Positions 16,324 through 63,994 of a stretch of 64,000 nucleotides of DNA are shown here, in pieces. Each line of letters begins with the position of its first letter. The first letter of the stretch is position 1. Below the pieces are notes generated by a model that was not told where the DNA came from, did no database searches, and was given only the letters and a program-made list of their open reading frames with translations. Where the stretch lies: positions 96,001 through 160,000 of the forward strand of contig CAVVXH010000011.1 of assembly GCA_963752155.1 (NCBI GenBank), read 5' to 3'. The position numbers and the translations under genes were made by a program. This DNA is from an uncultured Parachlamydiaceae bacterium (GTDB lineage: Bacteria > Chlamydiota > Chlamydiia > Chlamydiales > Parachlamydiaceae).

Positions 16324-16536
16324 TGCCATTGGAGCCTGACCTGGGGAGAAACGAAACGACGTTTTTCGACCAAAACCTTGCCATTTCTTTGTTGTAGCGG
16401 TTTAGAAAACTTGCTTGAGTTCTATCGAGGCTACGTCTGCGGCATGACTCGTATAGAGGCTGCGTTCTGCGGTGGCAAAGCCACGCGCACTCCAAAAAAT
16501 TTTTATCAAGTCAACTTGAAATAGCGCCAGATTTAA
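16324..16536. repeat. Chimeric palindromic-element derivative made of three modules found elsewhere in the window
   Basis: 16324-16389 matches 44788-44854 and the reverse complement of 45269-45334; 16402-16491 matches 63677-63767; 16469-16536 matches 22365-22432. The terminal TTAA overlaps the recB stop codon. Confidence 0.92.
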
Positions 16537-19500
16537 AAAATTTGTAATGATGAACCACATCCACGCAAAAAAACGTAGAAAACACCGCCAAAAATCTCCT
16601 CAAAAGGCCTTTCATCCACCAACTTCAAGTAACGCTTTAAGGCTTCCTTATAAATATTTGCCTGTAGATAGTAATCATGACTCTGCATAGCTTGATCAAT
16701 TTCTTGCAAACTATAATGGCTCTCATCCGGTCCAAGCCAATTACTTTTCCAGTCCACAATGCAAAATTTGCCATTACATTCAAAAACAAGATCAATAACC
16801 CCCTTAAGAAAGCCCGGTCGCATTTCAAATTCTGGATGCAACAAATGTGTCGTCGGGTAAAGAAATTCATGTTCTCTGTAACATTGATCCTCTGCAAGAT
16901 TCTGTAAATAAAAAGAACCATTCCCAACTAACAGCGGAGTCGTTAGCGCATGATAAAGAATATCACTAATTACTTCAAGCCAAGCTTTAAAGGGTGTTTT
17001 ATAAATATACCGATCTACAAACGTTAACAACGCGTTGTTTCTTTTCCCCTCAGAAACAAAATAAAAAGGGATTTTCTCTAAAAGAGTATGCAATAAAGTC
17101 CCTGTAGAGCTTCCAGCTGGCAATGTATGAGGATTTTTATTGCTGCAGTCAAAATCACTCGGTGGTCGTACTTCTTCAAATGAAGGAGATGTCGAAGAAC
17201 TCCCTTTTGTAAGCGCTGTAAATGAATGCATGTAAAGAGGTTCACCCGGTATTTCTATTTTAGGGGGATCTCTTAATTCGAGATCATCTTGTTGATTCTC
17301 TTCTAAAAAAGGACTTGAAATTTTATCACTTTCATGAACTTCATCAAATGCTGAAAAAGTCATCTCAGAAATGTGACACTTATTCGCTAGCTGACGTATC
17401 TCTTCTAACGAAGTCTCTACTTTCAAATGTTGAATACGTTCATGCAAATCTTCAAAAGGAATTTGAGGTTGACCCAAAAGAGCCAAATAGAGCTCCATCG
17501 CTGAAGCTGCTCCAGGCTGACAAAGCTTACCCGGCGCTTCCAAAAAAAGAGGTATATAAAGCCGCTGTTTTGCTCGCGTAAAAGCCACATAAAGTTGACG
17601 AATCTTCTCTGCATCGATTTCTAACAAATATTCTACATAACGAGGATCACTTTCATCCTCTAGGGGGGTCAAAAGTGGAGGTAAATGATCGCTAGTTATA
17701 GGAACAAAGGGTGAAGGTCTTTTAGGACGCTTGACGACTCCTAAAGCAAAAACAATTTCAAATTCTAGTCCTTTACTTGAATGAATCGTAAGAATACGAA
17801 CCCCTTCTTTCTCTGGATTGATGCGCTGTTTGAGATTCTGATCCCCTTCTTCTTCAACTTGGAGCAACTCATCTAATGTTCGGAGGAGTCTATAAGGTGG
17901 CAACTTTTCTGATATCTCTTTTTCTATCAAAAACTCGGCTATCTGTTGAATGCCATGAAAGAGATCTAGCCCCCCCTCACGCATAAGCAAATTCTCCCCT
18001 ACGGTTTTTTCTAAGCCTGACCAAGAGCTTGCTAAAAACGCCTGATAAAAAGCAGAAAATCCATTGTCACGCCAAATCCTGCGCAAAGCCATTCCTTGAC
18101 TAATCAATTCTTCCATTCTTGAAGTTTGAGAATCGGCCAAAGCCAAAACTTCTGCTTGGGACCAACCCAACAAAGGACCTGCTAAGGCAATTTTTAGAGA
18201 GCTTTCTTTTTGCGGAGTCAAAATGGCCTGAAGCAACTCCCTCATGGCTCCAAAGGCTAACGTTTCTACGAGACTTTCGGCTCTTTGTGTCACATAAGGA
18301 ATTCCAAGCCTTTTAGATGGCTCCCTAAACGGGAAGCTTGAAAGCGATCGGCAACTAAAACTGCACAACTGCTTAAAAGAACTCCTCGCCCATGGAGCTG
18401 CTGAAGTTCCTTCACAATGAAAGGAAGGAGATACAATTCTTCAGCTTCTGCGAGTTTTTTGCTTTTACTTTCTTGCGCTTCCTTGAAAGCAAAAAAATGG
18501 ACAGCTCCGCGATTATCATCGTAAGACTGAACGGCCACTTTTCCACCACTCTTGACCGGCCTGTAAGGCAAAGATTCTCTAAGATGCGGTAGGGCAATAA
18601 GCCCAGGAACCGTCTCAGAAGAAAAAAGAAAATTCAATGCTTGTACAAGCGGTTCCGTCGAGCGATAATTCGTATCTAAAGATGCACGGCAACCATCCCC
18701 TAAAGCATTTCCTGCTGAAAGATAAGTATAAATATCTGCTTGACGAAATCCATAGATCGATTGTTTTGGATCTCCAACTAGATATAATCTTCCCTCAGCA
18801 AGCTCTTCGCTTAAAAAGAGAGTCTTAAAAATCCTCCATTGAATCGGATCTGTATCTTGAAATTCATCGATGATGGCTGTCGTATAGCGTTTACGGACCT
18901 TTGCTACAAAAGCAGGCTGCTGCACAGCTTTATCCATATAGGTGAGAAGATCATCAAAGCCTACGATCTCTTTTCTACGGAGATACGCCGAGACCATTTC
19001 TCTGCATTTATACCCAAGAGCTGCCAATATAAAATGGGGATTTCTAGCCACTTTAACGCAAGGTAAAAGCAAACTTACAAGCTTAGGGATCAATTCAGGA
19101 ATGTGAAGCTGGTTAGCTTCAGGAGGTTGTTTTTTTTTACCGAGATTCGTTAGATCAAATGCCTCCACCAAATAGAGACCATCAGGAATCAGTACATCGA
19201 AGTCAGCAAGCTCCCACATATCCTTAGCAAATAAGTCAGCAAATCTTGTAACTTTAGCCACATTCTCTTCTTTAGGTTTTTTCTGTTGATTGCAGATGCC
19301 TGTATAGAAAGGCGCTTGCAAAAGAAAATCTTCGTGAATATGTTTAGGAGTAGGATTTAGTTCCTGCTTTAATGAGTTCATTCCATGACAAAACTCTGTA
19401 AAGAGCTCTTGAATGGTCTTGACAGGAGCTATACCAATCCCCTTTGTCATAAGTAAAAACAGTACTTTTTCAAGCCCCTCAACGCCTTTCGTATCATTTA

Positions 19501-20054
19501 AAAGAAGTTTCAACTGACCGTAACTGACTAGATTTTCAGAAAGCATTGTTCGAAAAAAATCTTTGATTAAACGAGCATAAAGAGAAGGAGGAATTCCCTC
19601 CTCGTTTTCACCTAAAGAAGCACATACATCAGCTTCAAAAAGATATTCCTTCAACATTCGATGACAAAAGCCATGGATCGTAAAAACAGAAGCTTGTTCA
19701 AAACTCGCTAAAGCATCCTCTAACTGTCTTTTAGCATAAAGCTGCTTGGATTCTTGATTTTCTAGCAAGGCGGCTGAGATAATCCGGAGCACCTTCAATT
19801 TGATGGGATTCGATGATGGACAAAGCCTTCTGTATACTTTGTCGAATACGAGATTTAAGATCCGCAGTGGCTGCTTTCGTAAAAGTAACCACTAAAATAT
19901 TTTCAAGAAGGCAGGAGTTCTCTTCGTCGATTAAGAGCCTAACAATAATGTTCTCAATGGAATATGTTTTTCCAGTTCCGGCAGAAGCTTCTAAAATACA
20001 ATTGGAATGGATATTTTGGGTTCGCTCTAAAACTTGAAAAGAGGGAATTGTCAT
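16533..20054 (-). CDS. recB: Exodeoxyribonuclease V beta subunit, split into three ORFs by two frameshifts (about 19775 and 18312), probably sequencing indels
   Basis: EASAGTGKT, VTFTKAAT, TIHGFC, IIDEFQDTD, VGDPKQSIYGFR, TIHSSKGLEF, LYVAFTRA and nuclease motif GVIDL..IVDWKSN. The second shift is a short A-run (CTA AAA [A]GG CTT GGA). Confidence 0.93.
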
Positions 20055-20231
20055 TTAAGCCCTCTTTCACCTTTTCGGTCAAAAATACGGTCAGTCGAGA
20101 AGTGCCGAATGTGGTGATTTGCGACGAGGCAATAGCCTAAGCTATTGCCGAGGAGCAAAGCAGCGCAGTCGGCGTTTCGCAGTCGACCGTATTTTTGACC
20201 CAAAAGGTGAATGAGGCCACTTTTAAGCCCT
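20054..20231. mobile_element. 168-bp palindromic insertion (MITE/RPE-like) bounded by the 10-bp direct repeat TTTAAGCCCT
   Basis: Arms 20061-20092 / 20185-20216 (30/32), central hairpin GGCAATAGC-CTAA-GCTATTGCC, direct repeats at 20054-20063 and 20222-20231. Confidence 0.85.
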
Positions 20232-62767: not shown

Positions 62768-63036
62768 AATGTCTCCTCAAAGGTTATCGTAAAATTATAC
62801 CAAGCTCAGTCATCAATTTGGATTTTGTGGATGCAGATTTTTTTGTCTGTTTTTTTGTGCAAAAAAGAGACATACATGTTTGTAGTCCAAGTTTATGACC
62901 GAAGCTGGTATAAGGCGTGGGTTCATCTTTATAGGACTATATTAACATTCTTCAAGAGGAAAATCAAGCCAAATTTAAGATTGGTAAAATTGTAAGACTC
63001 TTGCAACTTCTCATAAAACTGTAGATCAACGGTATA

Positions 63037-63081
63037 AACGATAAGAACGATAGGAGCGATAAAAACGATAAGAACGATAAC
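63037..63081. repeat. Five-unit 9-bp tandem array (AACGATAAG)
   Basis: AACGATAAG AACGATAGG AGCGATAAA AACGATAAG AACGATAAC. Confidence 0.9.
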
Positions 63082-63178
63082 AATTATAATTGAAAGAAGG
63101 TAGTGACATCATTAAACATATCCAGACAACATCTTGAATGCGTGGAGTTCCAGAGGTAGATTGCTTCAGTCTGGGAAT

Positions 63179-63994
63179 AGTCCCGGAGGGCCGACACTAT
63201 GTGAGAACGTTGAAACTTTAATTTACATTTGATTTTGAATTCATGGGGTGTGATTTTTTCTCGTACATAGCTAAGCCGCCAATTTCGTAAATTCCTCATT
63301 TAATTCAGCTTGCCATAAAAGATGCTATTTTCCGTTTGCTCATAGAGTACTTAAAAGTGATACTCATCAACATTCACGTAAAAGCTACTATTGGCATCAC
63401 TACAATTTAACAAATAAATACTTTTTGGAGTGCGTGTGGCTTTGCCACCGCAGAACGTAGCCTCTATACGAGTTATGCCGGTAGACGTTGCCTCCATTAA
63501 CTCATACTATACCAGGCGCTGCCATAGATTGTGTTTTTTTGCGCGTCAAAGCTCCCGCGGTTGAACGATCAAAAATGACCCCATATTGCAATATTGGGTC
63601 ATTTTTGATCGTTCAACCGCGGGGGCTTTCACACAGCAAAAAAATACAATCTATGGCAGCGTCTGGTATAACCTTGTTAGAACACTTGCTTGAGCTCTAT
63701 CGAGGCTACGTCTACCGGCATAACTCGTATAGAGGCTACGTTCTGCGGTGGCAAAGCCACGCGCACTTCTGAGTAAGCTTTTGAGTTTACTTCTTGATAT
63801 TAGCGCCCGCTGGTCGCTGAGGGCTCCAAAAAGTATTTTTTGGTTAAATTGTAATGGCACCAATAGTAATCTTAACGTTGATAATACAAGTTTTCATCTG
63901 TACAACTTTTAATCACACCCCGATTCATGATAAAATTATATTTAGTAAATTCCAAATAGTAACATTCTCACGTAGTGTCGGCCCTGCCGGGACT
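63179..63994. repeat. Four-layer nested inverted-repeat element, possibly extending beyond the window
   Basis: Arm pairs 63179-63211/63961-63994, 63386-63430/63824-63868 and 63429-63494/63702-63767, plus an inner hairpin at 63508-63670. Confidence 0.93.

Follow-up and report, generated by a model that had tools for sequence, protein, structure and literature searches.

A GGAG-foot REP family, its probable RAYT gene and nested composites of small mobile palindromes in a Parachlamydiaceae genome

We examined a 64,000-nucleotide stretch (the window) of the genome of an uncultured Parachlamydiaceae bacterium, in which a short hairpin core recurs inside layers of larger palindromes. The core is very likely the repetitive extragenic palindromic (REP) sequence of a REP-associated tyrosine transposase (RAYT) encoded on the same contig, RAYT-A. 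The composite nest is probably best explained by REP doublets (REPINs) mobilized by the RAYT and by other small palindromic families, which became nested in one another and were then copied. The REP type and the insertion of REPINs into REPINs are already in print. Described here, from Chlamydiota, is a pairing of RAYT and REP whose type is barely catalogued, within an unusually dense, multi-mechanism nest of small mobile palindromes. The window corresponds to C11:96001-160000 of the genome, G000 (3.13 Mb, 80% complete, in 22 contigs labelled C1-C22); other genomes carry G-numbers and their loci L-numbers. A labelled motif lies on 477 of the 750 repeat islands (coverage, 5.2% of the genome), and 158 islands hold at least two families. 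An OmcB-like protein, with a weak Chlam_OMP6 match (below cut-off) and three DUF11 domains, and one RAYT homologue bearing the name Parachlamydiaceae are consistent with a Chlamydiota host; DUF1137, used as a taxonomic marker, had no match.

The original prediction placed inverted core pairs at three loci in the window, a single core at 16469-16496 and a partial core ending at 35486. All of these were located. The arms of the first pair (22168-22265/22359-22456) are 98 nt long and 98% identical, with one mismatch within the foot of the core at 22232; those of the second (44787-44996/45126-45335) are 210 nt long and 92% identical. The third locus, near 63.4 kb, consists of a nested set of arms (63376-63430/63824-63878, 63429-63497/63699-63767, 63508-63542/63636-63670 and 63534-63588/63589-63643). 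This nest is larger than had been described, running from 63167 to beyond the window end. Layers that had been seen to recur elsewhere, at 2686-2760, 16324-16551, 31358-31565 and 46541-46592, are multi-copy in the genome. The predicted symmetric wrapping held in part: inverted nested arms are present at the paired loci, but the 63.4-kb locus is not fully symmetric because its right-hand module at 63770-63830 is missing on the left.

The core is present in 149 copies in the genome, and 112 of these form inverted doublets with the feet outward (a first regular expression gave 110 matches; the one used later gave 149). The pattern was not found in any of three shuffles of a 1-Mb part. The core folds as an unpaired foot followed by an 8-bp stem with a bulge. 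Family A motifs, to which the core belongs, lie mostly outside crude open reading frames (ORFs; 168 of 182, with 14 inside). The foot, GGAGTG, departs from the GTAG or GT[AG]G form used as a criterion for REPs. However, a REP with a GGAGTG foot is listed in PMC6006769 Table S1 for one subclass 2.2 protein, Chloroflexus ABY36092.1, so the foot is compatible with membership in the REP class.

The genome holds two Y1 (PF01797) genes, each single-copy (one tblastn match only). Both are outside the window, in line with the earlier observation that the window has no mobilizing enzyme. A genome search for a Y1_Tnp gene flanked by the core, which had been suggested, led to RAYT-A. This gene is intact (C11:40743-41348, 201 aa) and lies 55 kb left of the window. 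Directly upstream, on the 5' side only, are four tandem cores and one inverted core, each carrying an o1-type arm, as at window 16497 and 22168. RAYT-A passes the REP-associated transposase model NF047646 (98 bits, cut-off 80) and scores below the IS200 cut-off. It keeps the catalytic residues (H64-x-H66 and Y125...NP), and its nearest solved structure is that of E. coli TnpA-REP (4ER8).

Homologues of RAYT-A were found in 26 of the 400 phylum genomes scored, its own included. The same foot, followed by a hairpin, was observed at 21 of the 31 homologue loci, or 20 of 30 once its own is set aside, vs 0 of 31 other Y1 loci; the 31 homologue loci include its own and one from an acidobacterial metagenome-assembled genome. 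The hairpin stem varies between genomes while the foot is constant, and relaxed inspection of loci lacking the pattern gave variant forms at 5 of 10. A scan of genome contigs with RAYT-A alone as the query gave 1 locus from 43 candidates. The copy number, the predominance of doublets and the single-copy Y1 gene with its adjoining cores agree with the proposal that the core is a non-autonomous, REP/REPIN-like element. The proposal that an HUH transposase acts on it in trans is likewise favored by the five cores beside RAYT-A and by the foot and hairpin shared among homologue loci, which point to RAYT-A as the candidate enzyme.

The REP type extends to other chlamydial genomes. A canonical REP pattern has at least one match in 58 of 251 genomes, compared with 0-2 matches of a reversed-pattern control in any genome. 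The pattern misses G000 because the stem of its core has an extra bulged base. Copy numbers are 147 in G035, 228 in G019, 229 in G287, 153 in G439, 115 in G446, 117 in G369 and 90 in G160; the small-genome chlamydiae searched gave no canonical copies. At least five canonical REPs are present in 8 of 10 genomes with a RAYT-A homologue vs 3 of 168 without (178 genomes searched both ways, in which kin are not independent). In G035 and G160 the doublets are plain, have no outer layers and end at a T run before the foot; a C and T run precede the foot in 21 of 30 plain REPINs of G035 and 20 of 26 of G160. In G287, from another family, the same REP type has symmetric arms of 27-31 nt in all 13 doublets examined, and additional layers, unrelated to these, enclose the doublets over 700-870 nt. 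Nesting thus recurs without being obligatory.

In G000, long composites recur as such. The 44787 element has 18 listed matches including itself, about 290-640 nt long and 83-93% identical, with different flanks and ragged ends. Junctions between families are also shared: K-B at 107 loci, I-A2 at 23, and B-o3 in two versions, one long (8 copies) and one short (10 loci), set apart by loss of the B hairpin. A2 doublets have a single length in 14 of 18 copies. Among 68 family B doublets, most have an empty spacer of 90 nt, and six have a filled spacer of 252 nt with H1 at one site; H1 occupies this B-spacer site in 15 paired copies among those listed. Islands flanked by o4 arms at either end number 26: 8 of them are empty, 17 contain core variants and 1 contains family E. 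A separate tally of empty shells gave 7 of the o4 type and 1 each of the o1 and o2 types. The empty o4 form joins across a 17-nt near-direct repeat, as expected of a slippage deletion (the direction is inferred). The proposed exchange of modules is thus seen directly, with one shell type holding a core doublet, another family, a larger composite or nothing. We consider it highly probable, if a little less so than the pairing of core and RAYT-A, that composites were copied as units. Two inverted, identical 480-nt copies with an empty shell and flank lie 13 kb apart at G000:C7:6866-7345 and 19886-20365; they may mark the boundary of a local inversion or duplication.

The nest at 63.2-64.0 kb has the order J, M, REPIN, H2, hairpin H. 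Two other contigs (C10 and C8) have the J site in its empty state. At C11:55764 is a second copy that keeps both ends of M and shares the H2 junction, and a third with one M end is on C19. The left H2-A2 junction, in the A2 spacer, is common to three loci, each keeping at least one M end. The reverse order, M enclosing J, is also present in the genome. The M-bounded composite gives the strongest hint that RAYT-type REPs were carried by a transposase that duplicates its target (two informative copies, one with an ambiguous flank). That more than one enzyme class moved REP-bearing composites is, in our estimate, an evenly balanced proposition.

Four of the co-resident families, F, H1, H2 and M, resemble miniature transposable elements with inverted repeats (MITEs) in having terminal inverted repeats (TIRs) and a target duplication of fixed length, more weakly for M. 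The duplication is exactly 8 nt in 18 of 25 copies of F and 3 nt in 30 of 36 copies of H1, a fraction that overstates independence because 15 H1 copies come from one event. TA is present on both sides in 5 of 7 copies of H2. M has a 9-nt direct repeat at its flanks, the left copy of which is identical to the empty site at 7 of 9 positions. They are putatively MITEs of IS5-like (3-nt TWA), IS630-like (TA) and IS1595-like (8 nt) elements.

Families C, D and E are linked to genes of other kinds. Among 14 Pfam GxxExxY matches, 10 have a D motif within 450 nt and 1 has a C motif (background 9%). Arrays related to C and D flank 19 of 29 GxxExxY loci in other genomes vs 3 of 63 controls. Family E flanks one broken four-helix-bundle gene. 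Literature searches, at the level of listings, turned up no paper on repeats of GxxExxY genes. Family D elements on C15, C4, C10, C22, C11 and C17 enclose GxxExxY fragments, several of them spanning model positions 65-108; these are cassettes that have multiplied in an internally deleted form. At L004:1400-1920 (G000:C4), a GxxExxY gene has immediately upstream of it a fusion of a family B end with a family C repeat, which is a possible source of the very common B-C composite. G398 and G280 (L187, L188) have 17 and 12 GxxExxY matches, many equal in score and frame length, with short inverted arrays adjoining; these look like a recently multiplied autonomous element.

Family B flanks the second Y1 gene, RAYT-B, on both sides. 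It is abundant (162 islands, 68 doublets), and in the window it forms the outer layer at 44787 and 16324 and a hairpin at 31465-31554. RAYT-B has 341 aa, is below the NF047646 cut-off and shows a weak match to a DnaA C-terminal-like domain at 224-326 (E=0.00075), with no Pfam tail domain matched. TIR motifs of the GGGG-W-S-A-S type flank 19 of 29 RAYT-B homologue loci vs 1 of 29 and 1 of 30 controls. A first, strict version of the motif had matched 1 of 29, and a de novo repeat listing and a wider motif followed; the wider motif was chosen after the repeats were seen, so the 19 of 29 is partly circular, though the controls were scored with the same motif. The TIR of family B itself is a diverged form of this motif. 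Family B is older than the species: both congeners have diverged copies of it, and the 44770-45410 element matches neither. Hairpin H was considered as a free end of a TIR-associated tyrosine transposase (TIRYT) and dropped, as its copies proved to be MITEs with target duplications.

The original prediction described one system growing by symmetric addition of modules. This claim is not supported. A private junction is one-sided in 45 of 46 islands (a count in which the low-complexity filter removes family E junctions, including the single mirrored case), and the layers are separate families with different partner genes or insertion signatures: B with RAYT-B, C and D with GxxExxY, E with the four-helix-bundle gene, and the MITEs with their target duplications. 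In the corresponding mechanism each arm would gain an identical module, as might happen if a hairpin intermediate were copied by folding back. The arms are indeed more alike within than between elements, with 4.35 vs 6.9 differences in A1 (p=0.0002, n=20) and the same trend in A3 (p=0.013, n=11) and A2 (p=0.049, n=15). One o4 shell with family E has mirrored junctions on both arms, and the short B-o3 junction is mirrored at 44787-45335. However, the layers have target duplications of their own and occur free. The raggedness of the outer arms and the plain doublets of G035 and G160 also speak against this mechanism. Symmetric outer arms of 0-146 nt in 65 pairs are built of shared modules, and none is mainly of local unique DNA (two cases are doubtful); arm growth by capture of such DNA is accordingly unsupported in these pairs. 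We regard symmetric growth as improbable and largely refuted as the main route, surviving as a secondary homogenizing step. For the most part the symmetry results from insertion of one palindrome into another, with a contribution from homogenization of arms.

Somewhat less remote, though still unlikely, is that families were inserted singly and the composites spread by gene conversion or template switching between repeats. Outer arms are ragged, ending 7 to 208 nt out with no fixed cut site, many junctions fall within short shared sequence, and most of 36 family pairs co-occur at chance level. What decides us against it is that composite copies with 83-96% identity over 290-540 nt lie at many separate loci with unrelated flanks, that the M-bounded composite sits with a direct repeat in a site whose empty form exists, and that the A2 doublet length is so uniform. 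Selection of the elements at gene ends as domesticated terminators or mRNA stabilizers would fit their mostly intergenic position and their slight enrichment between convergent genes (25 of 94, vs 287 of 1606 spacers). This explanation is very unlikely: the sequences are species-specific and linked to transposase genes, and no such element was found at any of the four orthologous gene ends inspected, the atpC end and the recB-like end in both congeners. Synteny differs beyond three of these four ends, so they are not clean empty sites. In a congener (G002; L085:60-260 and L221:1-100), the hairpins downstream of the same genes belong to another family, which suggests that repeat families turn over within the genus. 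Fold-back chimeras of the assembly can be practically dismissed. Several window genes are split by apparent frameshifts, and the assembly therefore has errors; substitutions nevertheless separate the arms, the flanks are distinct from copy to copy, the target duplications are precise, and independently assembled genomes have the same architecture. A 228-nt contig of the Logan set (share 0.06) extends across the spacer of a sister copy and the two inner arms beside it; it is possibly from the source sample and was not used as support.

We therefore return to RAYT-mobilized REPINs nested with other palindromic families, a reading based on copy numbers, gene-repeat linkage, empty and filled sites within the genome, and shared junctions; from these we infer the assignment of enzymes to composites and the order of events. 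RAYT-A would read the core as its recognition hairpin, with core pairs forming REPINs. By analogy with E. coli TnpA-REP, the REPINs would most likely be copied to new intergenic sites via a single-stranded intermediate. The genome has further small palindromic mobile families: the TIRs of the second transposase, of TIRYT type; MITEs of at least four kinds, with target duplications; and repeats linked to GxxExxY and four-helix-bundle genes. A nested palindrome would arise when one family lands inside or against another. Each mobilizer would read only its own ends, so that a passenger is copied along and one founding insertion becomes a multi-copy composite. Long hairpins would then shrink by slippage deletions, leaving ragged ends, short junction forms and empty shells, and the arms may be partly corrected against each other.

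Several observations weigh against this account. CT is not in excess at the outer breakpoints of 129 arms (5 observed, 7.5 expected), and no RAYT cut site can therefore be discerned in this genome; long arms as the product of cuts at distant CT sites are likewise unsupported. The composite subfamilies A2 and A3 are the youngest (nearest-neighbor identity 0.977 and 0.968, compared with 0.873 for A1) and are without the arm type of the RAYT-adjacent array. The search for a transposase to partner the MITEs found none: IS1595, DDE_3 and mutator families were absent with the queries used in the 80% complete genome, and 13 DDE loci inspected had no ends matching the MITEs. The second M-bounded copy lies inside a tandem-like repeat, and its direct repeat is thus ambiguous. 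No clean empty site was found in a close relative, the two congeners being too distant. When positions were shuffled 300 times over intergenic spacers, the pairs A+B, A+I and B+C were above every shuffle, but under a stricter null of repeat-bearing spacers only, A+I and B+C remain above chance and A+B does not. With only a few pairs in excess, there is no sign of general targeting, and amplification of a few founders explains the excess.

A bolder version, to which we give slightly less than an even chance, is a relay across mechanisms, in which HUH-type REPINs, DDE-type MITEs and GxxExxY cassette repeats nest either way and the outermost ends pick the mobilizer. If so, the youngest REPIN subfamilies would have spread by hitchhiking, selection would in truth act on composites as its units, and mobilizers would include a third class, the GxxExxY nuclease.

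The features of the window are collected in Table 1. The 44770 composite comes after the epsilon gene of the F-type ATP synthase genes at 39573-44680 (beta subunit confirmed), and the module K remnant is immediately upstream of an ORF of 4016 aa (46597-58647) with a DUF3638 match only. A recB-like gene (16533-20054) and a poly(A) polymerase gene (60717-61845) are each broken into several ORFs; the former is one frame of ~1200 aa in both congeners. The splits in the window reflect assembly indels or recent decay. Unlabelled multi-copy palindromic families lie at 62790-62888, 20056-20219 and 27632-27810 (11-21-fold coverage). A 32-nt repeat occurs three times in tandem at 3944-4046, overlapping the start of an AAA_14/DUF4143 gene.

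Table 1. Repeat elements of the window, with positions counted from its first nucleotide.
Positions	Strand	Feature	
2686..2760		o2-type outer-arm remnant of the core family, without core	
4097..4290		hairpin of family C (which borders a GxxExxY gene at another place in the genome)	
16324..16388	+	end of family B (TIRYT-type) with arm o3 joined to it; junction common to 10 loci	
16389..16468		spacer and module I of subfamily A2; private one-sided junction to o3 (left core lost)	
16469..16496	-	single REP core of family A	
16497..16551	-	o1 outer arm, as in the array beside the RAYT gene	
22168..22456		REPIN, subfamily A1, o1 arms; cores 22232-22259 and 22365-22392	
31358..31565		composite: family C end, module K, family B hairpin	
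34258..34433		family C hairpin	
35288..35442		inverted arrays of 9-mers, family E (which elsewhere borders a broken four-helix-bundle gene)	
35443..35486	-	decayed core, subfamily A3, adjoining family E	
44770..45406		composite: K remnant, B end, o3, o4, A3 REPIN, mirrored arms, end of family C; REPIN cores at 44930-44957 and about 45165-45192; inner part multi-copy in the genome	
46541..46592	+	module K remnant with private junction	
63018..63119	+	9-mer array of family D (which borders GxxExxY genes and fragments of them)	
63167..64000		element of family J, interrupted by insertion of M; unsplit on C10 and C8; extends ~43 nt past the window	
63246..63920		MITE-like unit M, 675 nt, terminal inverted repeats, 9-nt direct repeat at flanks	
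63376..63878		o2 arms and A2-type REPIN with module I, inside M; module 'a' (63770-63830) on the right only	
63510..63668		MITE H2, 159 nt, TA on both sides, in REPIN spacer; centre is hairpin H	

These results extend RAYT-REP systems to environmental chlamydiae, several with 90-230 canonical copies. The genome offers dated internal markers of REPIN spread in its target duplications, shared junctions and empty shells, and the predicted pair of GGAG-foot substrate and enzyme is open to assay. No description of a chlamydial REP, REPIN or RAYT turned up in literature searches, although supplements and subscription papers could hold one; PMC6006769 Table S1, by term search and in part 1 of its 7 parts, gave no chlamydial entry. 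The likeness to the TnpA-REP of subclass 2.2 with Chloroflexus ABY36092.1 is one of REP sequence alone.

The MITEs of DDE insertion sequences share with those found here short terminal inverted repeats, target duplications of fixed length and no coding capacity; here, however, they carry or are carried by REPINs, with no partner transposase found. The bacterial interspersed mosaic elements of enterobacteria, to which PMC3116915 and PMC8266576 refer, are mosaics of REPs and other short modules. The present elements are mosaics of the same kind, but their modules are separate mobile families with insertion signatures of their own, nested in either order.

For family B, the nearest described system is the TIRYT or TIRtron (PMC3733652; subclass 2.1 of PMC6006769; RAYT group 1), to judge from the parts of these papers at hand. 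The likeness lies in a 341-aa Y1 protein whose gene is flanked by the family and in homologues with the GGGG-W-S-A-S-type TIR. The difference is that family B is abundant in doublets, whereas PMC3733652, in the same parts, rates TIR families as moderately abundant; it also reports hundreds of fused REP-stem-loop structures in Pseudomonas. The available text of 10.1101/2021.07.10.451892 ties REPINs to RAYT groups 2 and 3 only. Family B is thus an abundant doublet family of TIRYT type, from a group said to lack REPINs.

The core and RAYT-A compare most closely with the REP/REPIN-RAYT systems (PMC3116915, PMC6006769, PMC8266576), as far as the accessible portions of these papers describe them: a foot with a hairpin, inverted doublets, an array beside a single-copy Y1 gene and intergenic dispersal. 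Within those portions, clusters of REPINs beside RAYTs and REPINs inserted into unrelated REPINs are reported (PMC3116915), as are cleavage between C and T by the E. coli enzyme and a dissemination of REPINs that is still unresolved (PMC8266576); an excerpt of PMC3337134 gives no hybrid REPINs in SBW25. The system described here differs in its GGAG-type rather than GTAG foot, its long ragged outer arms and its chlamydial host, and in that its nested composites have themselves been amplified, to 10-20 copies.

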